IMG/VR virus record: IMGVR_UViG_3300032303_000924
Coordinates: 1-30,626 of that record
Length of the DNA stretch: 30,626 bases
Source: a virus
Lineage: Duplodnaviria > Caudoviricetes
Direction: 5' to 3' (one strand)
Below are positions 1,995-23,764 of the stretch, in pieces (the first letter of the stretch is position 1; every line of letters begins with the position of its first letter). Below the pieces are notes generated by a model that was not told the origin of the DNA, made no database searches, and worked only from the letters and a program-made list of their open reading frames with translations. The translations under genes and the position numbers were made by a program.

Positions 1995-2481
1995 GCAACG
2001 CGCCGTTCACCTTGTCGAGAGTTAGCCCCAAAATCTCGGGCATATAACCCGCCGTTTTATCGAGATCGTATTTCTCGAGGTTGTAATAGTCCCCAACTTG
2101 CTCTTTGATCGGTCGAAACATCACGGCCATAAGTTGAGGCAGCTCTTTATAATTCGGTTCGTCAGAGTTAGGCCAAATGCTTTGGGCGAGTTGATCCAAG
2201 TCGACGTGTTCGCGAAATGTGATTCCATTTATGTCGGGTAAAAACGCGAGGCGCTTCCCGTTAATCGTTACAATCCGCTCGAAGTTATCGCCAGCCGCAT
2301 TAATAACCTCATCGAATAACTCAATAATCGTTTGCGCGGTTTCGACCTTGAGGCCCTCGCAGTATTCACGGTTCTTATTTATGATCACCATCACTTTTTC
2401 GATGTCATCAGCTGCCGAGTGGTAATCCATAAATTGGCGAAGCGTCACTTGGGAGGCGTTGCCCGGTATCTTTAACTTCAT
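1855..2481 (-). CDS. Tail assembly chaperone G
   Basis: 208-aa ORF containing CTT TTT TTT TCA (LFFS) slippery run, with an open -1 frame downstream; start overlaps the TerS stop (ATGA). Confidence 0.75.
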   Translation of the reverse strand: MKLKIPGNASQVTLRQFMDYHSAADDIEKVMVIINKNREYCEGLKVETAQTIIELFDEVINAAGDNFERIVTINGKRLAFLPDINGITFREHVDLDQLAQSIWPNSDEPNYKELPQLMAVMFRPIKEQVGDYYNLEKYDLDKTAGYMPEILGLTLDKVNGALLFFSSIGAELVNNSLDSLDAMLAKEMKAILPQADSRAGGGTTSSSR

Positions 2482-2813
2482 AGGTTCGCGCTTATGGTTA
2501 TCACTGGTTGGTTATCCGCTCCCGTAATTTCTTGGCGCTCGATATAACCTCTACTTTTTGCCTGCGTTTTTAAAAAAAATATAGTTGCGGCAACGTTGCC
2601 CTCACTTATTTGTTTATGTAACTGAGCCTCGGCAAAATCAATAGTTATATTTTTAATATTTTCGACTTCAATTTTATAATTTGAATCGGTTTTTAACCAT
2701 TCATAATGCGTGCATGAATTAATACCTACCATTCGCGCGGCGGTTGTAACAATGCCTAAAGACTTTTCAAGGGCCTCAATCATTGCTTTTTTACGTGTTG
2801 GATTCTGTTGCAT
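2478..2813 (-). CDS. terS: Terminase small subunit-like HTH protein
   Basis: KKAMIEALEKSLGIVTTAARMVGI..THYEWL HTH, then helical DFAEAQLHKQI..GNVAATIFFLKT..RGY.ERQEI pattern typical of putative TerS in Bacteroidota phages. Confidence 0.7.
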   Translation of the reverse strand: MQQNPTRKKAMIEALEKSLGIVTTAARMVGINSCTHYEWLKTDSNYKIEVENIKNITIDFAEAQLHKQISEGNVAATIFFLKTQAKSRGYIERQEITGADNQPVITISANL

Positions 2814-4907: not shown

Positions 4908-5384
4908 TTAAACATTTTCCCCCGAATCGTCCCATGTTCCAACGTTTACGGTTTCTTTTAGATATTCGATAACCATTCGCGCTTTACAACTTGAGCACCC
5001 GTAGCGTTGGCCTGTTATCTTGGTGAACCATTCGGAGGCGGCTTTAATGATTTCCACGGTATAAACGCCCTGAGTTGGTAACCCCGAAACGAATTCGCGT
5101 AAAGCCTCGGCCTCGGTTTCATTTAGGCGATAGCGGCCCCACTTGTTTATTGGGCACCTAAATAACGAGTATTTGGTTTTGACAGGCATAAAGCATCCAC
5201 ATAAACGGAGTTTTTTCCGATAGTGAGTAATCTCATTTAATACCTCAGCCTCGGCCAAATCCTCAGGGCTCAATTTATCCCCCAAAACGAGGGTACCACA
5301 CGATTGGGTTTCAGCCTTAAAGTGTTTACAGGCTTTACAAATATTAAATCGCTCAATTGCGACCGCTGGGGGTACTTTGAACAT
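4908..5384 (-). CDS. Cys-rich putative zinc-binding protein
   Basis: RFNICKACKH...CG...LCGCFMPVK...CPINKW and a C-terminal CSSC. Confidence 0.65.
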   Translation of the reverse strand: MFKVPPAVAIERFNICKACKHFKAETQSCGTLVLGDKLSPEDLAEAEVLNEITHYRKKLRLCGCFMPVKTKYSLFRCPINKWGRYRLNETEAEALREFVSGLPTQGVYTVEIIKAASEWFTKITGQRYGCSSCKARMVIEYLKETVNVGTWDDSGENV

Positions 5385-5883
5385 TGCGTTTTATTTTGTT
5401 TATAGCGTTTTCGACTAATTTATAAAGTGTTTTTATTGGGATTCCGGTCGCTTTGCTCGCCTCTTTATAGCTGAAATCGTCGAGAATATATAACCTCAAA
5501 ACCACGGCGTCGAGCTGAGGCATTAAGTTAATGTATGCGTCGATATACTCGTTATCTAATCGACTCCCGAGCCACGGGGCGTTAGGTTCATCCAAATGCT
5601 TTTCTGAGAATTCAGACCAACCCCGAGAGAACTTTCCGTATTTTACCCCAAAACGTGAGGTGGGGTCGATAGCCATAAGATAAAGCGAGCGATCAACGTA
5701 ATAACTCAATTTGCCCTCAGCCGCGAGAGCCTCGGCCTTATCGCGTTGGTTCTCTAAAATCTTTAAAAGCGTTTCGGCGAGTAGGTCATCCCCTTTAGCT
5801 CGGTCGCGCATAAGCCCCCGGGCTAACTTGGTCCAGCGTGGGTAATTGGCGGCGAGTTCGGTGTCCAACTTATTTTTTTCCAC
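5353..5883 (-). CDS. ECF-like RNA polymerase sigma factor (probable late sigma; start uncertain, GTG 5883 or TTG 5925)
   Basis: Region-2-like GDDLLAETLLKIL and region-4 HTH VLRLYILDDFSYKEASKATGIPIKTLYKLVENAINKIK. Confidence 0.75.
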   Translation of the reverse strand: MEKNKLDTELAANYPRWTKLARGLMRDRAKGDDLLAETLLKILENQRDKAEALAAEGKLSYYVDRSLYLMAIDPTSRFGVKYGKFSRGWSEFSEKHLDEPNAPWLGSRLDNEYIDAYINLMPQLDAVVLRLYILDDFSYKEASKATGIPIKTLYKLVENAINKIKRNVQSTPSGRN

Positions 5884-5885
5884 GA

Positions 5886-5919
5886 TTCGGTAATGTAGCA
5901 AAAAACTAACATATCTTCG
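5886..5919 (+). promoter_or_regulatory. Bacteroidota-type promoter with operator half-site in the divergent intergenic region
   Basis: TATCTTCG (5912-5919) resembles TAnnTTTG. It is preceded by TGTAGCAAAAAACTAACA (5894-5911), whose left half is identical to the 8268-8285 palindrome. Confidence 0.55.
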
Positions 5920-5946
5920 CGACAACCAATATAAACCCCCTACACA

Positions 5947-6222
5947 ATGGAATTAAACCCAATTGTCAACACCGAATCTAAAGAGGTGTTAACTCCCGTG
6001 AACGAATTTATTTCGATTATTCGAAGCCGTTACAACTCAAGCCCCAACTCGTTAGCCGCTGGCGGTTATCGCGAGGTTCTTAAAATGGCTGAACAGTTCG
6101 TTAACGCTGAAATCGCGTTTAGTTCAGCCGCATATACGGCGGGATATGAGCAAGCGATTCAAGATATACGCGAAGCGAAAAACATCGAGCCCCAAAATGA
6201 GGAGGTGACAAATGAGCTCTGA
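5947..6222 (+). CDS. Hypothetical protein
   Basis: 91-aa ORF, first gene after the promoter, overlapping the next ORF. Confidence 0.7.
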   Translation: MELNPIVNTESKEVLTPVNEFISIIRSRYNSSPNSLAAGGYREVLKMAEQFVNAEIAFSSAAYTAGYEQAIQDIREAKNIEPQNEEVTNEL

Positions 6223-6403
6223 AATATTAGACAAATTAATTAACGAGCACTTTGGCACTAAGGCGCTATTTAGTGCCCGAATGAAAGTAAGCCGTCACAC
6301 TTGTTACCGATGGATTAAAGATCCATCGCGAATGACCTTAAACGATTTAAATCGACTGAGCAAAATAACTAAAATCCCAATTTGTGAATTTTATGAGTGC
6401 TGA
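6212..6403 (+). CDS. Small Cro/XRE-like HTH regulator
   Basis: TKALFSARMKVSRHTCYRWIKDPSRMTLNDLNRLSKIT HTH pattern. Confidence 0.7.
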   Translation: MSSEILDKLINEHFGTKALFSARMKVSRHTCYRWIKDPSRMTLNDLNRLSKITKIPICEFYEC

Positions 6404-6887
6404 AACTGACTTCGAAAAACTATTGTTATTGATTCCCCACCGTTACCATTGTGAAGCGCTGAACCTGCTAAATCAATATCTCAGCCCCGAAATGAAGTGG
6501 GAAGCAAATGATTATTTAAAGTTTTATAAAAAAGAACCTGAGGCCCCCGCCGAAATCATTAAAGTAATTTTTCAAATCGTCGGTGAGGTGACCGGAGTGG
6601 AAAACGTTAGAGACACTAAAAGGCGCATTTACAACGAGGTTATGGCGCGACAATTGGCCATGTACGCCATTTATTACGAATTAACGAATTTTGGTTTATC
6701 AATGGTTGGCCAAGCGTTTACACATAAATTTGATCATGCCACGGTTATTAACGCGAAAAAAAGCATCGAGAGCCATTATGCAACAGATGGAGAATTCAGA
6801 CGCATGTTCAACCAAGTTGCCGCGCTTATGGAAAAGCAGGGATTAACGAATTTAAAGGCCCGGATTTCAATTTTAAAAACGTTGTAA
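6393..6887 (+). CDS. Protein with DnaA domain IV-like (Bac_DnaA_C) HTH
   Basis: RR...VMARQLAMY...LSMVGQAF...DHATVINAKKSIE matches the DnaA C-terminal signature (ARQIAMY...IG..F..RDHTTV). No AAA+ domain. Confidence 0.75.
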   Translation: MSAETDFEKLLLLIPHRYHCEALNLLNQYLSPEMKWEANDYLKFYKKEPEAPAEIIKVIFQIVGEVTGVENVRDTKRRIYNEVMARQLAMYAIYYELTNFGLSMVGQAFTHKFDHATVINAKKSIESHYATDGEFRRMFNQVAALMEKQGLTNLKARISILKTL

Positions 6888-8182
6888 TGGTAACCTTTCT
6901 CCCGAAGCAAATCGATTGTTTAAACGCGCTCGGATTAGATAGCGCGGCCGAGGTTGTGTTATTCGGTGGAGCGGCTGGCGGGGCAAAGTCATTCACGGGC
7001 TGCGCGTGGCAAATTCAACGGCGTTTGAAGTATCCCGGAACGAGGGGGCTAATTGGACGATCAAAACTCGATACGCTCAAGAAAACCACGTTAAAGACCT
7101 TTTTTGAAGTAGCGGGGATGTTTGGGCTCAGAGCCAACGAGCATTATACCTATAACGCTCAATCCAACATAATCACATTTTACAACAAATCGGAGATTAT
7201 TTTAAAGGACTTATTCGCCTATCCATCCGATCCCTCATTTGATTCGTTAGGATCGCTCGAAATTACTGATAGTTTTATCGATGAGTGTTCTCAGGTTTCA
7301 AAAAAGGCAATTGACATAGTGCGCTCTCGTATGCGTTATAAGCTCACCCAATACAACTTAACCCCCAAAACGTTGCTAACGTGTAACCCATCGAAGGGTT
7401 GGCTTTATAACGAATTTTTTGCCCCGTTTCGTTCGGGCCATTTGCCGCCACATTTGGTGTTTATACAATCGCGAGTGAGCGATAATCCACACTTACCCAC
7501 CACCTATGCTGAAACTTTGGCTCGGTTGCCTGAGCTTGATCGTAAACGCCTTTTGGAGGGAGATTGGGATTATGACGAAACACTCGACGCGCTATTCACT
7601 ACCGACGATTTACTCCGATGCTTTCGCCCAGCTGAGCAAACGGGAGAGCTTTATATAACGGCCGACGTTGCACGACTGGGAAAAGACAGGACGGTAATAG
7701 CGCTTTGGCGTGGCCTTTCGCTTATTCAGATAATTGAGCTACGAAAAAAGAAAATAGACGAAACGGCCGCCGTTATCCGTGAGCTCGCGGACTTTAATAA
7801 GGTAAAATTGAGCAACGTTATAGCCGACGCCGACGGCTTAGGCGCTGGGCTTGTGGACGTGCTCAAGTGTCGTGAGTTTCGTAATGGATCGCGAGCCACT
7901 AAACCCGAAAGATTTGTTAATCTAAAGGCCGAATGCTTTTTTAAGTTGGCCGAACTCATCGAATTAAACCGCATCGTGTTACCCGTGGCCCATCGTGACG
8001 TTATAATTAAGGAGCTCGATTTGATGCGGCGCAAAAACCCCGACGGGGACGGCAAATTAGCGGTTACCGGGAAAGAGGAGATTGCACGAACCCACGGAAT
8101 GAGCCCCGATTATGCCGACGCGGTGGCGATGCGAATGTTTTTCGAGCTTTTCCCCAACTATGGGCGGTATTCATACGCATAA
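6887..8182 (+). CDS. terL: Terminase large subunit
   Basis: Walker A GGAAGGAKS, Walker B FIDE, LTCNP coupling motif, DNPHL, RNase-H-like nuclease ADVAR.G.D / DADGLG / SPDYADA. Confidence 0.93.
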   Translation: MVTFLPKQIDCLNALGLDSAAEVVLFGGAAGGAKSFTGCAWQIQRRLKYPGTRGLIGRSKLDTLKKTTLKTFFEVAGMFGLRANEHYTYNAQSNIITFYNKSEIILKDLFAYPSDPSFDSLGSLEITDSFIDECSQVSKKAIDIVRSRMRYKLTQYNLTPKTLLTCNPSKGWLYNEFFAPFRSGHLPPHLVFIQSRVSDNPHLPTTYAETLARLPELDRKRLLEGDWDYDETLDALFTTDDLLRCFRPAEQTGELYITADVARLGKDRTVIALWRGLSLIQIIELRKKKIDETAAVIRELADFNKVKLSNVIADADGLGAGLVDVLKCREFRNGSRATKPERFVNLKAECFFKLAELIELNRIVLPVAHRDVIIKELDLMRRKNPDGDGKLAVTGKEEIARTHGMSPDYADAVAMRMFFELFPNYGRYSYA

Positions 8183-8204
8183 TTAAAAAAGTTTATTCAC
8201 AACG

Positions 8205-8227
8205 AAAGCCGCGCTAGTTGCGGTTTT
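8205..8227 (+). terminator. Probable intrinsic terminator after terL
   Basis: AAAGCCGC-gctagtt-GCGGTTTT hairpin with a short U tract. Confidence 0.5.
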
Positions 8228-8260
8228 GAGGCACTTATTGACAATAATCAATAAAATATT

Positions 8261-8293
8261 TTTGGTGTGTAGCAAATTTGCTACATATATTTG
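8261..8293 (+). promoter_or_regulatory. Bacteroidota -33/-7 early promoter with a perfect 18-bp palindromic operator in its spacer
   Basis: TTTG (8261-8264), 21-nt spacer, TATATTTG (8286-8293). The spacer contains TGTAGCAAATTTGCTACA (8268-8285). Confidence 0.8.
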
Positions 8294-8332
8294 CCCAACA
8301 ATTAACGAGTTAAACACTTAAAACAAAAATCA

Positions 8333-8530
8333 ATGTACACACTTATCATTAACAACCGCCCAAACCGCACATCTCAAACATTTGAATTTCGCAATATACG
8401 CGAAGCACTTACGTCATTCATTGAGCGCTGCGATGCTTTTGATCTTGTTTATTGCGAAGATAACAATGGGAATTTTAGCGCAGGTGGTATCGGTAGCGAT
8501 TGGGAAATTGAATTAATTTCTAATTTCTAA
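8333..8530 (+). CDS. 65-aa early protein, paralog A
   Basis: Shares SF.ERCD...NG...AGG.GSD..I.L with 8543..8740. Confidence 0.8.
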   Translation: MYTLIINNRPNRTSQTFEFRNIREALTSFIERCDAFDLVYCEDNNGNFSAGGIGSDWEIELISNF

Positions 8531-8542
8531 AACCCCAAAACG

Positions 8543-8740
8543 ATGCCATCAATACTTATCTTTCATTACCCCTCGAGCACCCACAAAGCGCTCCAATTCC
8601 CAACTAATCGCGCCGCTTTTAACTCATTCGCCGAACGTTGCGATGAGCTCGGCCTTGAATGGGAGGAACTCGATAACGGCGATTTGCGCGCTGGAGGTCT
8701 CGGTTCTGATTTCGTAATTGATTTAATGCAAAACCCTTAA
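8543..8740 (+). CDS. 65-aa early protein, paralog B
   Basis: Same length and motifs as 8333..8530. Confidence 0.8.
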   Translation: MPSILIFHYPSSTHKALQFPTNRAAFNSFAERCDELGLEWEELDNGDLRAGGLGSDFVIDLMQNP

Positions 8741-8751
8741 AATTTATTTAT

Positions 8752-9030
8752 ATGAACACATTTACATTTAAAATTACTTTGCCCCAAGTCATCGACACTC
8801 ACACAGTAGAGCTCCCCTATTACTGCAAATTGGGCCTTGCACATTGGGCAATCCTCGCCGAGGATCATTTTATTGAGGTAAATTATTATCCAACAATTAA
8901 GTCGGCAAACATCTTTAAAAAAGATAAAACGCCTAGCGAGTTGGAACGCTTTGAGGTTGAAGCCAGCACCCGCGAGGAATTTCTTGAAATCTATCAAAAG
9001 GCTATAAATCTAATCACTGAAAAGCTATGA
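8752..9030 (+). CDS. Hypothetical early protein
   Basis: 92-aa ORF in the operon, AT-rich translation start. Confidence 0.7.
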   Translation: MNTFTFKITLPQVIDTHTVELPYYCKLGLAHWAILAEDHFIEVNYYPTIKSANIFKKDKTPSELERFEVEASTREEFLEIYQKAINLITEKL

Positions 9031-9113
9031 AAGACGAACAAGTTAAAAAAGAACTGCAAATTTTAATTCTAATAAATCTAATTCTAATCATTCTATGGAT
9101 AGCTACCCTTTGA
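9027..9113 (+). CDS. 28-aa hydrophobic peptide
   Basis: MKDEQVKKELQILILINLILIILWIATL*; ATGA-coupled to the upstream ORF and overlapping the recombinase start. Confidence 0.5.
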   Translation: MKDEQVKKELQILILINLILIILWIATL

Positions 9114-9763
9114 GCGCCGAAACCGCCGAGGCTTTACAAAAATTCCAAACGCGGCTAAATAGCGCCCCAAATGATGCGGGCATCGAATCAACTCCCGACA
9201 ACAAAGCTAAAACCGTGGTCATTTCACACATCGAAATGACGCTCGATGAAATGTTTTTTGGGCAGTGGAAAACCGAAAATTTCAAGTGGTCGGCAATTGC
9301 TAATGAAGTCCAAGGCTCAATGGAGCTTGTATGTGTTCACCCGGTAACAGGTTTCGAATTACGCCGAACGGGAGCCGCATCAATTATAATTATGGTCGAT
9401 CGGGTACCCGAGGGGGTAACTGGCAGCGATCGCAACCAATGGGCTCTTAACCCAGCTAATAAGAAAGCCAACGCGTTAGATATGGCATTCCCCAAATTGA
9501 AAGCGGAATGTCTCAAGAACGCCGCCCAATCACTTGGAAAAGTATTCGGACGCGATCTTAACCGAAAGAACCGAGACGAGTACCGCCCTTATAAAATTGC
9601 AACCTCGGGAGAATTGCCCCAAAACATCATTAACAAATTGGAGGTGGGAATAATGAACCGTGACCCCCAAGCTATTGAGGCAATGGCCGCGCTTGATACT
9701 CATTTAAGCCCATCGCAAAAAAACCAACTTAACGAATTAATCCAAAAGCAAAATGAGCACTAA
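9095..9763 (+). CDS. Sak/Rad52-like single-strand annealing protein
   Basis: LDEMFFGQW...PKLKAECLKNAAQSLGKVFGRDLNRK resembles the Rad52/Rad22-type core; adjacent to an exonuclease. Confidence 0.65.
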   Translation: MDSYPLSAETAEALQKFQTRLNSAPNDAGIESTPDNKAKTVVISHIEMTLDEMFFGQWKTENFKWSAIANEVQGSMELVCVHPVTGFELRRTGAASIIIMVDRVPEGVTGSDRNQWALNPANKKANALDMAFPKLKAECLKNAAQSLGKVFGRDLNRKNRDEYRPYKIATSGELPQNIINKLEVGIMNRDPQAIEAMAALDTHLSPSQKNQLNELIQKQNEH

Positions 9764-10466
9764 CCCCTATTTAAATGAATATCTGATAAGCGTTGCCCAA
9801 AACTCGAGCGCTTGGGATAAACTCAGGCTTGGCCGCTTTACAGGCTCGGGAATCTCGGCGCTAATGACCGACCCCAAAACCAAGGCAGCCAAAGAAGCGG
9901 GAGAAATGAGCGAAACCGCCAAAAAGTACATTTACGAGAAAGTAATGGAGCTCGTCACTGGGCAAAGCGCCAACGAGGCAACCTCACGGGCGATTGATTG
10001 GGGTAACGAATGGGAGGAGCACGCATTAAGACAACTGCAAATTTCACTTAATAGCCCGGATGAAGGCACCGAGCTAAAGCCGTCGTTTAAATTATTCAAC
10101 GATTACTTTGGATGTAGCCCTGACGCCTTTATGATTCACCCCAAATTTGGGCCCGTTGGATGCGAAATTAAATGCCCGTGGAACTCAGTTAACCACTTTC
10201 ACCATTCGCAAATTGAAAGCGCCGAGGATTTAAAACGAGTAAACTCCGATTATTATTGGCAAGTGATTGGCAATATGTTAACGTTTAATCTCCCAGCGTG
10301 GGTTTTTGCCTCATACGACCCGCGCCAGCCTGAGCACCGCCAACTACACCACACGGTGATTTTATTCGATCCTGATGCCGCCGCTAATCTTTGCGAGGTT
10401 ATGGAAAAGGCCCAAAAAATGAAAATGCAGCTACTAAACGAGTGGCTCGAATATCCAAAAAAGTAA
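9753..10466 (+). CDS. YqaJ/lambda-type exonuclease
   Basis: W..LRLGRFTGS, WG.EWE..A, GCSPDA, EIKCP, YYWQV motifs. Confidence 0.9.
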   Translation: MSTNPYLNEYLISVAQNSSAWDKLRLGRFTGSGISALMTDPKTKAAKEAGEMSETAKKYIYEKVMELVTGQSANEATSRAIDWGNEWEEHALRQLQISLNSPDEGTELKPSFKLFNDYFGCSPDAFMIHPKFGPVGCEIKCPWNSVNHFHHSQIESAEDLKRVNSDYYWQVIGNMLTFNLPAWVFASYDPRQPEHRQLHHTVILFDPDAAANLCEVMEKAQKMKMQLLNEWLEYPKK

Positions 10467-10484
10467 ATCCCAAAACGTTATAAA

Positions 10485-10925
10485 ATGAAATTTAGAACTA
10501 GTTATGTAAATCGCATTGAGCGAATTCAAAAATGGATTAACGAAAATCCGGGCGTACACGTCAACGATATGCTCGAGGAATTCAGCGACACACCACGCGG
10601 CACTATTAGCGCCCTCCTTTCATTTATGCTCAGAGCTGGGCACCTTATCAGAGGCGGAAAAGGTTATTACACATTACCTGATTTAATCGCAAGCCCCAAA
10701 AGTGTGGCGTTTGATATTGCCAAGCAAAAGAAAGCACCGAACCTGTTTAACCACGCTAAAAGGCGCAAAGGGGGGAGTATGCCCCAAATTGCCCCTCTTG
10801 AAATTCAGTCGGTTACAAATCGTAACCAATTGCCCGAGATAATTAAACCAGCGCCAACGGATGAAATTATGCGAGCGATTGCGTTGTTAAAAAGTAATGG
10901 GGCGAAAATTACGCTCGAGTTCTAA
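10485..10925 (+). CDS. Putative winged-HTH DNA-binding protein
   Basis: IQKWINENPG...TISALLSFMLRAGHLIRGGKGYYTL wHTH-like N-terminus. Confidence 0.55.
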   Translation: MKFRTSYVNRIERIQKWINENPGVHVNDMLEEFSDTPRGTISALLSFMLRAGHLIRGGKGYYTLPDLIASPKSVAFDIAKQKKAPNLFNHAKRRKGGSMPQIAPLEIQSVTNRNQLPEIIKPAPTDEIMRAIALLKSNGAKITLEF

Positions 10926-10944
10926 GGTTGTTTATTATTGCAAC

Positions 10945-11038
10945 GACACTCAGTAATGAAAATCTTGAATACAGACCGCCGCCGCATTGCCAAAGCCTAT
11001 CCGGGCGCTGGGTGTCCTTTGCGTGCGGTGGTTGTATT
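10945..11038 (+). ncRNA. Candidate structured cis-regulatory leader RNA (pseudoknot or switch) upstream of the initiator
   Basis: Long stem 10968-10986/11020-11038, plus GACACTCAGT (10945-54) complementary to the enclosed GCTGGGTGTC (11007-16). Confidence 0.55.
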
Positions 11039-11044
11039 TATTAA

Positions 11045-11692
11045 ATGAAAAAATCTTTCTTACTTTACATTGACGCCTTGGAGGTGCTTAATGTTTTAAG
11101 CGATCAACAGGCTGGGCAATTATTTAAAGCCATTCGAGCTTATCAATTGGGAATTGAGTTAGAAATTGAGCCAATTATTCAAATTGCAATGGCCTCGTTT
11201 ATCCAAAATTTTAAGCGTGATAATGAAAAATATTTAATGATTGTGGAGCGTAATCGCGCAAATGGATTGAAAAATAGTAAGTTAAAACATGAAACCCAAA
11301 GGAACCCAGTGGGTACCACTCGCACCCAAACAAAGCCACTCGTAACCGATAATGATAATGATAATGATAATGATAATGATAATGAGATAAACAAAAAAAA
11401 TAAACAAAAAAAGTTTGAACCTCCAACGCTTGATGAGGTTAAAGCGTGGTTTGCTGAACAAGGCTCAACGCCTGAGCAAGGGGCCAAAGCGTGGCAATAC
11501 TACACCGATGGAAATTGGAGCGACGCTAAAGGCTCACCCGTTAAAAATTGGCGTCAGAAAATGCGAGGCGGGCGTTGGCTCGAAACGCAAGCGCCAGCAC
11601 GCCAACCGGAATTACTGAAAAACTATCAAAATCTCACTAATCTAAATCTCGAATCTTATGACGAACTTAGTCACATTGGTTCCACCGAATGA
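11045..11692 (+). CDS. Replication initiator (DUF6291-like N-terminus, lambda O analogue)
   Basis: MKKSFLLY..LSDQQAGQLFKAI..Y N-terminus, low-complexity linker, F.PPTLDEV...YY...W...G..VKNW C-terminus; directly upstream of DnaB. Confidence 0.8.
   Translation: MKKSFLLYIDALEVLNVLSDQQAGQLFKAIRAYQLGIELEIEPIIQIAMASFIQNFKRDNEKYLMIVERNRANGLKNSKLKHETQRNPVGTTRTQTKPLVTDNDNDNDNDNDNEINKKNKQKKFEPPTLDEVKAWFAEQGSTPEQGAKAWQYYTDGNWSDAKGSPVKNWRQKMRGGRWLETQAPARQPELLKNYQNLTNLNLESYDELSHIGSTE
11291..11412 (+). repeat. Probable replication origin inside the initiator gene: short repeats, (GATAAT)6 and an A-rich tract
   Basis: ACCCA x3 and CCACTCG x2 (11291-11347), six GATAAT units (11348-11383), A-rich run 11388-11412. 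Confidence 0.55.
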
Positions 11693-13001
11693 CGTTGAAC
11701 TCGAAAAAACCTTAATAGGGGCTATTCTGCTCGATTTTAAAGCACTCAATCGCGTTGAAGGTATCCTAACACCTAAAAAGTTTTTTGATCCCCGTAATGA
11801 GCTTATAATTGAGGCAGTGTTAAAATTGAAAAGCGAAAATTTACCCATCGATATTTTAACCGTTACCCAAACGCTGAGAAAAACCCAACAATTAACCGGG
11901 GCGGGTGGGCCTGTTTATATCGCTGAACTCACGGGGCGCGTGGCCTCAACCGCTAATTTGGAGGTTTGGGCGCTGGCGTTAACTGAAATGTACTTAAAAA
12001 GAGAAATTGCCAAGATTGCAGCGCGTATGGCTGAGCTCGCACTTTCTCCCGAAAACGACCCGTTCGACCTTTATAACCAATTCAGCACCGAGTTAACGGA
12101 TCTCATACGCGATAATCTCAAAGGCCAAAGCTCGCACGTGTCAGCCATTACCCCCGAAACCTCATTCAGCATCGAAGCGCGTGATAAAATTGGAATAAGT
12201 GGAATCCCCTCAGGCATTCGAGCAATCGACGGCGTGCTCGGTGGCCACCAAAAAAGCGATTTAGTTTATGTGGCCGCTCGCCCGGGTATGGGTAAAACAT
12301 CCTTTGCGTTATCGGTTCTTTTAAATATCGCTAAAACAGGCCGACCCGTTGCGTTTTTCAGCCTCGAAATGTCGCGCGTTCAAATTGTTTTCCGCTTGGC
12401 CTCAATTCTGAGCGGGATAAACGCCGAAACGCTGGCAAAGCATCGACTCGACCGCGATACAAAAATTAAATACTATCAGATTGTCGACAAGCTAAACGCC
12501 TTACCGATTTACATAGATGACCAAGCCGCTCTAACGATTCACGATCTAAAAACGAGAGTTCGAATGCTTAGGGAAAAGTTTAAAGTTGAGGCGGTTTTTA
12601 TTGATTACGTCCAACTAATTAGTGGTGGAAAATCAAAAAACCAAAACCGCGAACAGGAAGTTAGCACCATTTCGAGGGGTTTAAAGTTAATCGCTAAAGA
12701 AAACGATTTGCCCGTCGTCGCTCTCGCCCAGCTCTCACGATCCCTTGAAACGCGAAGCGATAAACGCCCTATGCTTTCTGATTTGCGCGATTCCGGGAGC
12801 CTCGAGCAAGATGCGGATGTGGTCGCCTTTCTTTATCGCGAGGATTATTACTCAAAGGAAAGCGGTATTAACAACGCGGAGTTCATTATCGCCAAACATC
12901 GCAACGGTCGAACTGGTTTCGTAAATGTAAATTTCACCCCCGAAACGATGCACTACACCGACACATTGCAAGTACAACCCCAAAACTATTTTGAATTATG
13001 A
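11658..13001 (+). CDS. dnaB: Replicative DNA helicase
   Basis: AARPGMGKT, FSLEM, IDYVQL, QLSR..E.R.DKRPMLSDLRDSGSLEQDAD, KHRNG. Confidence 0.97.
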   Translation: MTNLVTLVPPNDVELEKTLIGAILLDFKALNRVEGILTPKKFFDPRNELIIEAVLKLKSENLPIDILTVTQTLRKTQQLTGAGGPVYIAELTGRVASTANLEVWALALTEMYLKREIAKIAARMAELALSPENDPFDLYNQFSTELTDLIRDNLKGQSSHVSAITPETSFSIEARDKIGISGIPSGIRAIDGVLGGHQKSDLVYVAARPGMGKTSFALSVLLNIAKTGRPVAFFSLEMSRVQIVFRLASILSGINAETLAKHRLDRDTKIKYYQIVDKLNALPIYIDDQAALTIHDLKTRVRMLREKFKVEAVFIDYVQLISGGKSKNQNREQEVSTISRGLKLIAKENDLPVVALAQLSRSLETRSDKRPMLSDLRDSGSLEQDADVVAFLYREDYYSKESGINNAEFIIAKHRNGRTGFVNVNFTPETMHYTDTLQVQPQNYFEL

Positions 13002-13534
13002 AATATGAGTTTTCAGAATGTTCGTGGGAATCTGTAAAACATTTATTTCTGAATTATCATTATTTAAAATCTATGCCCGCTGGAATATTGGCCGTATATG
13101 GATTATTTGATAATGAAAATTTGGGTATATCAGTTGGCGGCGCTATATTTTGCAATGGGCGAATTCAATACGATAAAAAATATATTGAATTCAGTCGAAT
13201 GTATTTAATACAAGATTTACCAAAAAATAGCGAATCTCAATTTATTGGCAATTGTCTTAAATCATTAAAAAAAAAATATCCCACTTATTTAGGAGTTGTT
13301 ACTTGGGCTGATTTAAATCGTGGTCATAATGGAATTATTTACAAAGCATCGAATTTTGCTTTTGACGGAATGAGCCGCTCGGTAAAAAAATATCAAGGTA
13401 AAAACAAAAAAACCATTTATGAACGTACGGCAAATGCACAAAGTATTTATTGCGGATTTGATAATCCAAAAAAACGATTTATTTATTATTTTGATAAAAA
13501 ACTAAGAGAAAAAAAACGAAATGAAAATATTTAA
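12998..13534 (+). CDS. Mom-like GNAT DNA adenine-modification protein
   Basis: YHYL, EFSRM, KNSESQFI, WAD...GHNGIIYKASNF correspond to the Mu Mom-family pattern (HY...EL.R...N.ES...YAD...H.G.IYQA.NW). Confidence 0.75.
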   Translation: MKYEFSECSWESVKHLFLNYHYLKSMPAGILAVYGLFDNENLGISVGGAIFCNGRIQYDKKYIEFSRMYLIQDLPKNSESQFIGNCLKSLKKKYPTYLGVVTWADLNRGHNGIIYKASNFAFDGMSRSVKKYQGKNKKTIYERTANAQSIYCGFDNPKKRFIYYFDKKLREKKRNENI

Positions 13535-13733
13535 AAACTCTGACGGATCATTTGATGTGGTAAACGATCACCGAATTTTGTTTCACGCGAAAAACGGCCA
13601 ATTAAAACTTATTGGGCGGGTTTCTCCAAGCTGGCGAACAGTCTCGAAACAAGTAAGCCGTTTACCCGTTAAATTGAAACCGTTTAAATGCACAATTGAA
13701 ACAACTATTTATGAAGCGTTGCCGCGTTTGTAA
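13521..13733 (+). CDS. Hypothetical protein
   Basis: 70-aa ORF overlapping both neighbours. Confidence 0.6.
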   Translation: MKIFKNSDGSFDVVNDHRILFHAKNGQLKLIGRVSPSWRTVSKQVSRLPVKLKPFKCTIETTIYEALPRL

Positions 13734-14247
13734 AGAGAAATTCATGCCGAGTTATTCAACATTGCAAGCGACTTGCACCAAATCGCGTTGTTTAATCGAA
13801 TGGAGGCGCATCGTTGAGCGTAAAAAAACCAAACGAGAATTAAAAATAATTCGCGAAAGCCTAAAAAGCGTTAGCCAATACCGCCGAGAACTCCAAAAAG
13901 TATTTAATGAGTTCATCCGCCTGAGAGATTCAAAACAACCGTGTATAAGTTGTAATAAGCCTCTACCGCTTAAATATGATGCGGGCCACTTTTACTCGGT
14001 TGGGGCTTATCCCAATTTAAGGTTTAACGAGGACAACGTTCACGGCCAATGTGTCGAATGTAACCAGCACAAACACGGCAACCTTTTGGAATATGCCCCA
14101 CGATTAAATGAGCGAATCGGATTTGAACGGGCGAGTAAATTAATGGCAATTAGAAATGAGCCGCTTAAAATGCCACTCGATGAAATAAAACGACTAATAG
14201 AACACTACAAATGCAAAGTGAAAACCCTGAAACGAACCTCCGAATAA
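13711..14247 (+). CDS. ninG: NinG/Rap-family junction endonuclease
   Basis: CRVC...C...C, FNEFIRLRD..PCISC, DAGHF, LRFNEDNVHGQC..CN. Likely ATG start at 13711. Confidence 0.9.
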   Translation: MKRCRVCKEKFMPSYSTLQATCTKSRCLIEWRRIVERKKTKRELKIIRESLKSVSQYRRELQKVFNEFIRLRDSKQPCISCNKPLPLKYDAGHFYSVGAYPNLRFNEDNVHGQCVECNQHKHGNLLEYAPRLNERIGFERASKLMAIRNEPLKMPLDEIKRLIEHYKCKVKTLKRTSE

Positions 14248-14390
14248 TCGCCTTAAAACAAGAGCTTTTTATTTTAATGGCTCGGCGATCATTACGGCCG
14301 TGCCTTACTGAAAACGCCCGAATGTGGCGCGTAATGGCTGAGCTTTACGAATTAACACACGACGAAAATTTTAATTTAAAATCCAAATAA
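14211..14390 (+). CDS. 59-aa hypothetical protein (LYELT family, copy 1)
   Basis: MQSENPETNLRIIALKQELFILMARRSLRPCLTENARMWRVMAELYELTHDENFNLKSK*; fills the gap and resembles 14627..14791. Confidence 0.65.
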   Translation: MQSENPETNLRIIALKQELFILMARRSLRPCLTENARMWRVMAELYELTHDENFNLKSK

Positions 14391-14391
14391 A

Positions 14392-14625
14392 ATGAGTAAT
14401 TACACACAAAAGGAAGGCCAAGGGTCTTTATTTAGAAACGACAAAAAAAACAACGAAAAAAGCCCCGAATACACGGGTTCCATTATGGTAAATGGCCGTG
14501 AAATGCGCCTGAGCGCTTGGGTAAAAGAGGGTAAAAGTGGTAAATTTTTGAGCCTCCAAATTTCAGAAAAACAAAATCCAAAACCCGCAAGCGAACCAGC
14601 ATCAAATAACGATTTACCTTTTTAA
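14392..14625 (+). CDS. Small SSB-like (DUF736-like) protein
   Basis: GSLFRN.KK..KSPEYTG.I.VNG....LSAW....GKFLSL beta core with a C-terminal NDLPF tail. Confidence 0.7.
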   Translation: MSNYTQKEGQGSLFRNDKKNNEKSPEYTGSIMVNGREMRLSAWVKEGKSGKFLSLQISEKQNPKPASEPASNNDLPF

Positions 14626-14626
14626 A

Positions 14627-14791
14627 ATGAAAGCTACACTTTACGATTTTGCCACCGTGGTAAAAATCCTCAAACTCCGAAAGGAACGCCACGAATTATT
14701 ATACAATCCAAAAGCATACCGAGGGCGACAAAAAGCTGTTAGCCGCCAGCTTTACGAGTTGACAAAAAATGAAATTTACCTCCGGTTCTAA
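14627..14791 (+). CDS. 54-aa hypothetical protein (LYELT family, copy 2)
   Basis: MKATLYDFATVVKILKLRKERHELLYNPKAYRGRQKAVSRQLYELTKNEIYLRF*; its stop overlaps the endolysin stop. Confidence 0.65.
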   Translation: MKATLYDFATVVKILKLRKERHELLYNPKAYRGRQKAVSRQLYELTKNEIYLRF

Positions 14792-20798: not shown

Positions 20799-21410
20799 CT
20801 ATACAAACGAATTAAACAAGTCGTTTTTTAAATGGTTTTTTAATAAATCTTTTAGCTCACTCAATATTTGATCTTCAACACTGAGTTTGGTCATCGAAAG
20901 ACCGAGCTCGTTAAAATGGCCCTCAATAGAAAAGCCCTTTACCGTGCCGTCCTTAACCTCGGCCCAAATTTCGGAATCGTCGACCTTTAGCCCAATAATC
21001 CATGAACCAACCGGGGCGGTTAATCCTAAATGGTAAGCCTTATCCTTTTCTCCCTCGATAATCCAACTCTCTACCACGGTGCAACCCATAACCGAATATT
21101 GGTGTTCAATTGTTGTGTTGTGTTGAAGATTCTTTTGTAAATAAAGGTGGGCGCATTTAGTAATCGTTTCATTGTCGAAAACGATATAGTAATCCTCACC
21201 TGTTGTTTGATCAACTCGCAAAATGTATTTATTCGGAATCAATGCGGGGCCGTAAAGCATACGACGCTCTGAGTCAACGCTTGATAATTTCACGGCGTTC
21301 AATGCAATGAAATTTTCCTCAATGGCTGGGAATTCAACGAGGCTAATCGCCCCAACGCCAAGTTTACCGTTTTCATCAATAACACATTTTACGATTTTCT
21401 TTTTGTCCAT
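20799..21410 (-). CDS. XkdF-like prohead maturation protease
   Basis: AISLVE.PAIEENF, GPALIPNK.I.R, T.EH, VESWI, P.GSW, W..VK.G.VKGFSIEG.F. Confidence 0.85.
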   Translation of the reverse strand: MDKKKIVKCVIDENGKLGVGAISLVEFPAIEENFIALNAVKLSSVDSERRMLYGPALIPNKYILRVDQTTGEDYYIVFDNETITKCAHLYLQKNLQHNTTIEHQYSVMGCTVVESWIIEGEKDKAYHLGLTAPVGSWIIGLKVDDSEIWAEVKDGTVKGFSIEGHFNELGLSMTKLSVEDQILSELKDLLKNHLKNDLFNSFV

Positions 21411-21417
21411 TTTCTTT

Positions 21418-21501
21418 TATATTTGTTGCGTAGTGATTCGATTTATTAGTTTCTAGTTTTTCAGTTTGGGGCCCCTTGAAACGTCGAGGGGCTTTCCTTT
21501 T
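21418..21501 (+). ncRNA. Candidate trans-acting antisense sRNA (-7 box, ~40-nt U/G-rich body, terminator)
   Basis: TATATTTG (21418-25); hairpin GCCCCTTGA-aacg-TCGAGGGGC + TTTCCTTTT has a U tract only on the + strand; body complementary to 9004-9027, 9069-9082 and 11614-11655. Confidence 0.6.
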
Positions 21502-23764
21502 ATAAACGGCTTAAATCGGTTACTTTCGCCCGAGCCTCCATGCTCGACGCAATATCCGAGGCCAAAACGTAAGCGGGCGTTACTTGTGCGGGTTGGTTTT
21601 GAAGGCCAAGCGTTGCGAGTGGATTAAATTCGGGAGCGCCGCCGGTTGTTGCCACGCCTGTATTAGCCAAATCCCCACCGCCACCGCCAGCATTGGAACC
21701 GCCACCACTTGGCGCGGGACTTTCAAAAGTGGTTTTAGAAATCTTTGCCACGTTTGCCAAACCAGCTGCAACTGCCGCTGCCGCCGCGATAAATGCACGC
21801 GGCACACTTGTAGGATCGCCCGGGATTAATTGCGAAGCATACGCCGCCGTAGCGCTTTGATATGTGTTAACGCTCGTTTGTGCAATTTGGAGGGCTTTAT
21901 TACGCTTAAATGCCGCCTTTTGAGCCTTTTCACTTTTACCCGTGAACGCCTCATTTAAACTCAAAAGAGTATTAATCGAATCTTGAGCCGTTTGGATGTG
22001 AGCGGCTTTTAATGCTTTGGCGCGATCCTCATCCTTTTTTTGTTTTTCCTCAGCAGCCGCCGTGTCGGCATCCCTGTACTTTTTATCAATTGCCGCTAAT
22101 CCGTCGTCTAATTGCTTTTGGAGATTTGTAGAGCTTTCTTTATTGGCTTTTAAAATTTCAATTTGCGCGTTTAACGAATCTCTGAGCGCAATTTTTTCGC
22201 GTTCCTGAGCGCTTAGGCCAGCTTGGAATTCGGCTTCCTGTAATGTTTCGAGCTCGTTTAAACGCTCGGTTTCGTTATCGCGTAAAACTTTATTAAGTGC
22301 ATCCTGTTTAGCTTGCTCTTTTGCGAGTTCATCTTTCGCGAATTGGTCGCGTATTTCTTGCTCTGACTTTAAACGGTCGGCCTCAATTTGCGCAAGTAAA
22401 CTCGCGTTTTTCCCCGCTTTCTCAACGAGCGCATCGTATTTTAATTGATTTTGGCGTAATTCCCTATCCTCGGCGCTAAGCGTATTTTGATAACGTTCCT
22501 CTTGCGCATCTTTGAGCGCATCCATTACCTCCTTTTCTCGCGCCTTACGCTCGGCGGCGCGTTGCTTGGCTAAATCCGCTTGGCGCTGGGCTTCGGCTTC
22601 GGCTTCTTTAGCGGCTTTCTCAGCGGCCGCAGCCGCATCATTTCGGGCCTTTTCGGCGGCATCTCCTTCGGCTTCAAGTCGCTTTAAAAAGATTTCTTGC
22701 AACTCGGCCTCGGCTTTTTTTCTATCCTCTTTTTGTTTATCGCTTTGTTCACCGCGTAACGAATTCGCTTTTTTTATTGCATCCTGTAAATCCGCGATGC
22801 GTTGATCTTCGGCTGCTTTATTAATCGCGTTAACATCGCCGCCCGTTTTTTTAGCCTCGGCAATTGCTTTACGCCTTTCATTATCGATTTGTTTTCCCCG
22901 TTCCTCAAGTGATGCAAAAGCCCCATCCACCGCGTTAACGGCCGCCACCTCAGTTAAACCAATTGCGTCAGTCACAGCAAAAATGGCTGTCTTAATTCCA
23001 TCAATTATACCGGTTAAAAAATTAAACACGGCCGCAACCGCTGGCACCGCATTTTTAATTTGCTCGAAATTATTTATAATCGTTAAAATAACTTGGCCAA
23101 GCAAAAAAAGAGGATTGGCTAAAAGAGCCTTACCAAAAGAAACGAAACCGTCTTTAACGGCGCTTATCCCGTCTTTAAGTGAACCAAGTTTAAAATTATT
23201 TACATTTTGACTCAGGCTCTTAAATTGATCGCCAACTCCTTTTAAATTGACATTGCCCAATTCCTCGCCAAGCGCTGAGGCATTACTACTGAAAGCGGCA
23301 AAGGCTGGCGCACCTTGGTTATCGACGGTTTTAGAAAGTTCTGCAATTTTTCCTTCAAGTTTTGAGGCCTCAAGTGTGAGTTTATTAATTTCCTCAGTAC
23401 CGAGGCCCTTTTGGTCTAATTGCTTTCGTATCGCTTGCAACTCCTTTTTATAGGAGCCAAGATTTTCACTTGCTGAAACGGCCTTATCGCCCGAATCTGA
23501 AATTTGCGTTTTTAGTTCATCAATGCTTTGGGTAACGACTTTCGAGGAACCTCCGAGCTCTTTATATTGCAAAGCGAGCTCAGCCCATTGAGCGCTTTTG
23601 GGGTCTAATTGCCCAAGTTGTGTTTTTAGATCGGCGAGTTGACTTATCCAACTTTTTGAAGCATCGCCCGCCGTGTTAATCTCTTGGCCGAGTTTATTAA
23701 TTGATTGAATAGCGCCCGAATCATCCGCCGTAACCGTTATAATTATGTTTGTATTGTCAGCCAT
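21500..23764 (-). CDS. Tape measure protein
   Basis: 754 aa, Ala/Glu/Lys-rich coiled coils with hydrophobic segments (ALLANPLFLL...) and a Gly-rich C-terminus. Confidence 0.8.
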   Translation of the reverse strand: MADNTNIIITVTADDSGAIQSINKLGQEINTAGDASKSWISQLADLKTQLGQLDPKSAQWAELALQYKELGGSSKVVTQSIDELKTQISDSGDKAVSASENLGSYKKELQAIRKQLDQKGLGTEEINKLTLEASKLEGKIAELSKTVDNQGAPAFAAFSSNASALGEELGNVNLKGVGDQFKSLSQNVNNFKLGSLKDGISAVKDGFVSFGKALLANPLFLLGQVILTIINNFEQIKNAVPAVAAVFNFLTGIIDGIKTAIFAVTDAIGLTEVAAVNAVDGAFASLEERGKQIDNERRKAIAEAKKTGGDVNAINKAAEDQRIADLQDAIKKANSLRGEQSDKQKEDRKKAEAELQEIFLKRLEAEGDAAEKARNDAAAAAEKAAKEAEAEAQRQADLAKQRAAERKAREKEVMDALKDAQEERYQNTLSAEDRELRQNQLKYDALVEKAGKNASLLAQIEADRLKSEQEIRDQFAKDELAKEQAKQDALNKVLRDNETERLNELETLQEAEFQAGLSAQEREKIALRDSLNAQIEILKANKESSTNLQKQLDDGLAAIDKKYRDADTAAAEEKQKKDEDRAKALKAAHIQTAQDSINTLLSLNEAFTGKSEKAQKAAFKRNKALQIAQTSVNTYQSATAAYASQLIPGDPTSVPRAFIAAAAAVAAGLANVAKISKTTFESPAPSGGGSNAGGGGGDLANTGVATTGGAPEFNPLATLGLQNQPAQVTPAYVLASDIASSMEARAKVTDLSRL

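Follow-up and report, generated by a model that had tools for sequence, protein, structure and literature searches.

Opposite the late genes of an uncultured phage lies a compact unit, at positions 21418 to 21501 on the + strand, in which a promoter box of Bacteroidota type, a short variable body and a terminator-like hairpin follow one another, and the body of which is complementary to the translation start region of the phage's own dnaB gene (Table 1). The architecture of the unit, its strand, its patchy presence among relatives and its complementarity to dnaB are seen directly. From these sequence features we consider it very probable that a + strand RNA of about 72 nt is made from the unit. 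We also lean, with a good deal of reserve, towards the view that this RNA acts as a translational brake on DnaB, through a pairing particular to each lineage and from the start of infection onwards.

The window, by which we mean the whole stretch of DNA analysed (30,626 nt), represents a complete circular phage of 30.5 kb with a terminal repeat of 123 nt. It belongs to a group of uncultured phages whose host is likely to be found among the Bacteroidota, as inferred from a Nonlabens phage relative, the rarity of GGAGG and the presence of TA(T/C)ATTTG boxes. The nearest cultured relative is Nonlabens phage P12024, at a protease identity of 44%, and relatives within assembled genomes show 35-51% identity, mostly on short contigs. 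Of 887 called starts only 25 have GGAGG before them, and in 19 of 25 genomes or loci a TA(T/C)ATTTG box (TATATTTG or TACATTTG) stands after terL, at the head of the replication operon. A + strand block (5947-14791) encodes a Cro/C1-type HTH protein, terminase, the RAD52-fold recombinase with its adjoining YqaJ exonuclease (PF09588), the DUF6291 protein, dnaB, ninG and ssb; the - strand carries a sigma factor plus the tail, head and lysis genes. From its gene position the DUF6291 protein is likely to be a replication initiator. The first-pass annotation had described a phage with neither integrase nor CI-like repressor. No integrase is indeed present among the 43 window proteins, but a 63-aa Cro/C1-type HTH protein (PF13443) is encoded at 6212-6403.

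Table 1. Features of the unit, its predicted pairing sites and the genes concerned, in window coordinates
Feature	Position	Strand	Remarks
Bacteroidota-type -7 promoter box TATATTTG	21418..21425	+	predicted +1 is G21430
Variable, largely unpaired RNA body	21430..21470	+	segment A 21432-21450, segment B 21454-21465
Intrinsic-terminator-like hairpin, AACG loop, U tract	21471..21501	+	stem-loop 21471-21492, then TTTCCTTTT
Second TATATTTG box, at head of recombination/replication operon	8286..8293	+	identical to unit box
Predicted main target: dnaB leader (-44 to -3)	11614..11655	+	30 Watson-Crick (WC) positions, colinear; inside 3' end of DUF6291 gene
Possible secondary site: small peptide start	9004..9027	+	passes in 2/16 units (window and G010/L114)
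Possible secondary site: before recombinase ATG, in peptide Leu/Ile codons	9069..9082	+	13/14; passes in 1/16 units
Hydrophobic 28-aa peptide	9027..9113	+	maximum 19-residue hydropathy 2.7
RAD52-fold single-strand annealing recombinase	9095..9763	+	model pLDDT 84; Foldseek human RAD52 E 5.5e-07
DUF6291 protein	11045..11692	+	PF19808; 35-nt overlap with dnaB start
DnaB-like replicative helicase	11658..13001	+	PF03796, PF00772, phrog_19
Prohead protease	20799..21410	-	PF14550
Tape measure protein	21500..23764	-	phrog_1538; stop codon abuts U tract of unit

Several other features of these genomes may be recorded here. The large terminase gene (6887-8182) lies on the early (+) strand, away from a small-terminase-like gene at 2478-2813 (-), and two adjoining 65-aa paralogues (8333-8530 and 8543-8740, +) stand at the head of the replication operon. 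The 28-aa peptide is tightly packed, its start overlapping the upstream stop (ATGA) and its end the recombinase start; many relatives have peptides of 25-34 aa in this position, and in other clades unrelated peptides of 32-34 aa occupy the same ATGA junction before the recombinase. A run of GATAAT hexamers (11348-11386, +), possibly an origin or a linker, codes for Asp-Asn repeats within the DUF6291 gene. Relative to the window, the recombination/replication operon is inverted, on the late strand, in G001, G002, G003 and L105. Strong Shine-Dalgarno-like GGAGG(T/C)G sequences, at most three per genome in a phage family whose starts are otherwise mostly without a Shine-Dalgarno sequence, precede small early genes in the window (6193-6214, +), G011, G012, G013, G017 and others. 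Finally, GGGAA-N15-16-CCGTT, which we liken to an ECF-type promoter consensus, occurs 45-47 nt upstream of a scaffold-like gene in eight of 12 genomes (sites in the window at 20731-20706 (-) and 4921 (-); also G006, G011, G012, G013, G017, G025 and G026) and may be a promoter recognised by the sigma factor that the phage itself encodes (5353-5925).

The coordinates of the unit in the first-pass annotation proved correct throughout, and the -7 box and a U tract confined to the + strand are present as it had described: TTTCCTTTT has six T in eight on the + strand and one on the - strand. Within the window TATATTTG occurs just twice, in the unit and at the head of the recombination/replication operon. 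The Bacteroidota box is placed at -12 to -5 relative to +1 in the account of PMC9723704, and with this placing the base at -1 is C in 19 of 25 units and that at +1 is G in 12 of the 25. Among the same units the box is TATATTTG in 14, TATATTAG in five and a variant in six, giving the consensus TATATT(T/A)G, and the distance from box to stem is 31-52 nt. The -33 element (TTTG) is spaced 19-21 nt from the -7 box, and none is found at that spacing from the box of the window. AACG forms the loop in 15 of the 18 distinct hairpins, and in 23 of 25 units the unit strand gives the more stable hairpin. Stem pairs on the + strand comprise 19 G-U among 144 and no A-C, a count that provides no clean strand test since the stems were defined on the + strand and the G-U pairs are partly inherited. 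The centroid fold of the RNA has a mostly open body and a single terminator stem. The unit is antisense to positions -20 to -91 of the protease AUG and to 2 nt of the tape-measure stop. Rfam yields no match at gathering score in the window, the only match (E=1.7) lying on the other strand of the 21200-21700 region. The small + strand RNA originally proposed is well backed by the box, start-site bases and strand-specific hairpin and U tract conserved in relatives.

The distribution of the unit is patchy. With a strict hairpin detector it is found in 27 of 63 distinct upstream regions, that is, gaps between the tape measure and protease genes, and three further units (L180, L382 and L429) are visible by eye. 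About half of the relatives are without it; in these the gap is mostly only about 10-20 nt, and relatives without the hairpin are also without the box. When the strict presence labels are placed on the protease tree, nine gains or losses result, at least seven of them forced, and somewhat fewer once L180, L382 and L429 are corrected. When 35 genomes or loci were scanned blindly for a box followed by a terminator, none had more than one unit and 22 had one, 20 at the tape measure-protease site and two just past the protease gene, all opposite late genes. A pattern scan of viral contigs returned 28 loci; among eight new loci that were examined, only L429, which is without dnaB, is a relative.

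The unit is kept over protease identities from 55% to 96% while its body varies. The body is often better conserved than nearby fourfold protease sites (for example 0.95 against 30/58 and 0.79 against 25/55), is replaced in some close pairs (identity 0.47-0.57 at 91-92% protease nucleotide identity) and is 86% common to G011 and G007 at only 65% protease nucleotide identity. This combination of conservation, replacement and sharing suggests selection on the body with occasional exchange. In the site-1 units of G011 and G007/G018 a small hairpin stands at the beginning of the body, and UUUCCAU, the sequence of its loop and the stem bases next to it, is the complement of AUGGAAA, with which the exonuclease gene of G011 starts.

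Units at the second site (G025 = L387, G027 = L390, G007 = L282 and G018) have a TAA(A/T)TT(T/A)G box shortly after the protease stop and a hairpin 34-46 nt further on. G025 and G027 are without a unit at the first site, and the second-site stretch of each matches its own dnaB start. These two matches are less secure because the second-site hairpin is present in all 14 genomes printed and the box shares bases with the stop codon of an inserted gene about 350 aa long. This optional gene, absent from the window, lies antisense between the protease and scaffold genes in relatives (L287:13021-14085 (-); also L390, L387, L304, L311, L282, L269, L105 and L285), and has no Pfam match above cut-off, no PHROG match below E 0.02 and no usable ESM Atlas match.

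Turning to pairing within the window, the matches of segments A and B on which a trans-acting RNA had been proposed are all present. Segment B pairs 12/12 with 11614-11625 and, by 11 WC pairs and one G-U, with 9016-9027; segment A pairs 14/15 with 9004-9018, 13/14 with 9069-9082, and with 11636-11655 through two 2-nt bulges. At the dnaB site the two segments are colinear with the RNA. At the peptide start their sites stand in the reverse of the order in the RNA and have 3 nt in common, so that a single RNA is unable to pair with both colinearly.

Of 5000 dinucleotide-shuffled bodies, 26% have an exact 12-mer match somewhere in the genome and 4.6% have one within an early start window. Ranked by duplex energy among the non-self sites (about 6,100 windows), the dnaB site comes 5th and the 9011-9060 window 8th, so that energy over the whole genome, tried as a discriminator, does not single out the three sites. 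An alignment score rewarding G-U was replaced, since it ranked noise highest. Taken jointly, the three sites give p=0.02 against shuffled bodies and p=0.002 against the start windows of unrelated relatives; five genomes with fewer than ten called early starts were left out of this test and of the all-early-start test below. Single matches are hence modest and the joint pattern is above chance. For the window body, dnaB is the best of 19 own early starts, and the window's own dnaB start ranks first of 62 dnaB starts. The net energy with the dnaB leader is -19.8 kcal/mol, the best for any trans partner among 35 starts, while the strongest predicted partner is the late mRNA (the protease-side complement), at -37.0 kcal/mol within a 60-nt window.

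Relatives were used to ask which of these targets is shared. dnaB, which the first-pass annotation had already named, is the top own early start in six of the 18 genomes when the window is counted; among mismatched pairs the figure is 28 of 280 (p=0.0096). Without the window, the own dnaB start passes at p<=0.05 for six of 23 units against 12 of 472 non-own pairs (Fisher 6.6e-5, the pairs not being independent). For site-1 units only, four of 19 pass on own dnaB (p=0.002), or three of 11 families (p=0.011-0.063). Eight families of a near group (DnaB identity above 70%, a near/far split drawn after the data had been seen) give combined Fisher values of 0.006 by WC score and 0.026 by energy. All 14 families without the window are not significant when combined (0.084 and 0.154), nor with a cluster-level null of 15 clusters (0.57 and 0.53), and a diagonal test gives p=0.158. 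The six distant families hold no combined signal (0.61 and 1.0), G001 being the only one to pass, by energy alone (p=0.020), and the own-dnaB match is missed in the near relatives G007, G008, G011 and G012. Over all own early starts only four of 19 bodies beat unrelated genomes, and the bodies as a group show no excess over 107 control leaders (Mann-Whitney p=0.18). The all-early-start test is conservative, as the gene caller missed the 72-aa first gene of G013, which is that genome's best match. Mis-called dnaB starts (L178 and L181) were excluded from the diagonal test and retained in the 62-start ranking, second-site and cluster-null panels.

In all eight duplexes drawn (the window, G013, L298, L012/L032, G016, G017 and second-site G025 and G027) the end of the paired region falls between -6 and +9 of the AUG. 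The duplex sequences differ from lineage to lineage, as do the bodies and the dnaB starts. G013 and L298, counted as one family with 12 nt in common, have a C/T difference at a synonymous target position, and their bodies differ to match. L012, linked to its dnaB by 99.9% identity over 5.7 kb, passes the own-dnaB test (p=0.017-0.040); G027 was linked likewise, via overlap (99.9-100%). On these comparisons, dnaB is likely to be the target common to the near clade.

Of the three trans targets originally proposed, then, dnaB is retained as likely, with own-start pairing in several unrelated body types, and the peptide and recombinase are not. As shared targets, the peptide site passes in only two of 16 units, the window and one likely sister (G010/L114), and the recombinase site in only one of 16; both are at most lineage-specific extras. 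Covariation is likewise seen at the dnaB start in near relatives and not in the 14 families combined, and for the peptide and recombinase it does not extend beyond that likely sister pair. Some other designs were tried and set aside. An anti-AUG body is not indicated by CAT in seven of 17 families (5.4 expected, p=0.28), and among 19 labels of other orthologous starts the lowest value (p=0.042, a Cro-like gene) is lost given the number of tests. A second unit does not rescue the dnaB misses, the best window having p>=0.146 in 13 of 14 genomes, with G025 the exception. We consider protein-binding repeats at the DNA level unlikely, since the matched sequences of close relatives are entirely different.

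We envisage the following mode of action. Host RNA polymerase with sigma-A would transcribe the unit together with the replication operon, as we infer from the same box being carried by both. The open body would cover the A-rich, unstructured dnaB leader, which is devoid of a Shine-Dalgarno sequence. Leader adenines at -3, -6, -12 and -13 drive initiation in Flavobacterium according to PMC6847099, and pairing could hide such upstream adenines and so damp translation of the helicase. Were RNA supply to scale with genome number, DnaB output would fall as genomes accumulate, so that replication would be under negative feedback. An incoming phage whose dnaB leader is the same might be damped too, amounting to exclusion. 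Ribosomes translating the DUF6291 gene could strip the RNA off, since the dnaB site lies in the last codons of that upstream gene. Late mRNA, which crosses the unit on the other strand, might soak up the RNA once late transcription begins. The late shut-off put forward in the first-pass annotation is the least favoured timing: the box is of the host-sigma kind found on the replication operon, and the late mRNA, as a perfect complement, would titrate the RNA, which argues for early damping instead. A broader conception is more doubtful, namely that the unit is an 'RNA moron' with a constant box and AACG terminator, whose guide of 30-50 nt is gained, lost and swapped and tracks the dnaB start of its own lineage. 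Were it true, these phages would possess a lineage-specific replication brake and an incompatibility group without repressor protein or integrase, and the late mRNA would be a sponge committing the phage to lysis.

An RNA acting only in cis, in the manner of lambda OOP or aQ, would pair perfectly with the late mRNA between tape measure and protease, or its promoter would collide with late transcription, limiting premature protease expression; its body would drift freely, and matches to early leaders would reflect a common A/C-rich leader composition. The cis partner is indeed the strongest predicted, by the energies given above, the body has the composition of reverse-complemented early leaders, for most distant families the own genome holds no notable match, and five of 107 control leaders reach p<0.01. 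A purely cis role would nevertheless leave the own-dnaB pairing of unrelated bodies unexplained, conservation of the bodies often exceeds that of neighbouring fourfold sites, and the RNA ends 20 nt short of the protease AUG, missing the -12/-13 adenines. We regard it as unlikely. A slightly smaller chance is given to an RNA that does act in trans but mainly on host mRNAs or the starts of competing phages, own dnaB being one use among several. The sequence AGTTTT(T)CAGT is common to the window, the G006/G017 family and G004, and their own early starts have no match to it in common; the body that is 86% common to G011 and G007 matches own dnaB in neither; and some bodies score 15-17.5 on the starts of other phages, although such scores partly reflect the size of the search (3,278 windows).

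It is improbable that there is no small RNA at all, the hairpin merely stopping stray antisense transcription or marking a processing site and TATATTTG being the reverse of the A-rich protease leader. The box does overlap that leader, all the sequences are AT-rich and single matches are common in shuffles. On this account, however, one would not expect hairpin-less relatives to be without the box as well, the spacing to be held at 31-52 nt with C at -1 in 19 of 25, the replication operon to be headed by the same box, or the 35 genomes or loci to hold no chance units elsewhere.

No description of such a unit, nor of a regulatory RNA for this phage group, was found in the open-licence literature; the phage regulatory RNAs described so far are mostly those of proteobacterial models. 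If the dnaB brake is real, phage replication would be under RNA control in Bacteroidota, a phylum whose ribosomes pay no heed to Shine-Dalgarno sequences, and plasmid copy control would have a counterpart that is trans-encoded. The natural body/target pairs of several lineages offer ready-made orthogonal reporter tests in Flavobacterium, and the unit may possibly serve as a 72-nt repressor scaffold for Bacteroidota.

The first-pass annotation had likened the unit to the C4 RNA of phage P1 and the CI RNA of P4, a comparison that we keep as analogy only. P4 CI RNA represses through short complementary segments, C4 and CI RNAs are multi-stem and processed, and Rfam includes C4 models. The C4 of P1 and P7 is presented in PMC8198154 as a small RNA repressing via short complementary segments, with c4, icd and ant in one operon. 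The unit resembles C4 and CI in its short complementary segments and in the small ORF of the controlled operon (icd there), yet it falls outside their class: it has no Rfam match and is a separate box-to-terminator element about 9.8 kb from dnaB (9.8-12.4 kb from all sites), its RNA is predicted to have an open body and one terminator stem, and the common predicted target is a helicase, not an antirepressor. C4 and CI have paired sites around a small ORF controlling an antirepressor or a killing gene; here too a peptide ORF has two sites, but the next gene encodes a RAD52-fold protein.

Antisense RNAs that set plasmid copy number are constitutive and unstable, and cause sequence-specific incompatibility. 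R1 CopA and pMV158 RNAII, as treated in PMC5717011, block rep translation directly or via a coupled leader peptide and are cis-encoded opposite their target. The block proposed here on translation of a replication gene would be similar, as predicted from sequence (for dnaB in the window and six of 23 related units, the all-14-family test being non-significant), whereas the unit is trans-encoded, pairs imperfectly and lies between tail and head genes. Lambda OOP and aQ, P22 sar and BTP1 STnc6030 are described in PMC12197685 as short RNAs with their own promoter opposite phage mRNA, STnc6030 giving superinfection exclusion. The unit likewise has its own putative promoter and terminator opposite phage mRNA, but its overlap is intergenic and misses the protease AUG, and covariation points to a distant own gene. 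Among the Hfq-dependent trans-acting phage sRNAs touching DNA replication that the same source covers, lambda PreS and VP882 VpdS, PreS acts on host dnaN, aiding replication (PMC12197685), whereas the predicted target here is the phage's own dnaB. In its short imperfect pairing over a translation start, predicted in eight genomes, the unit is like a trans-encoded sRNA of bacterial type.
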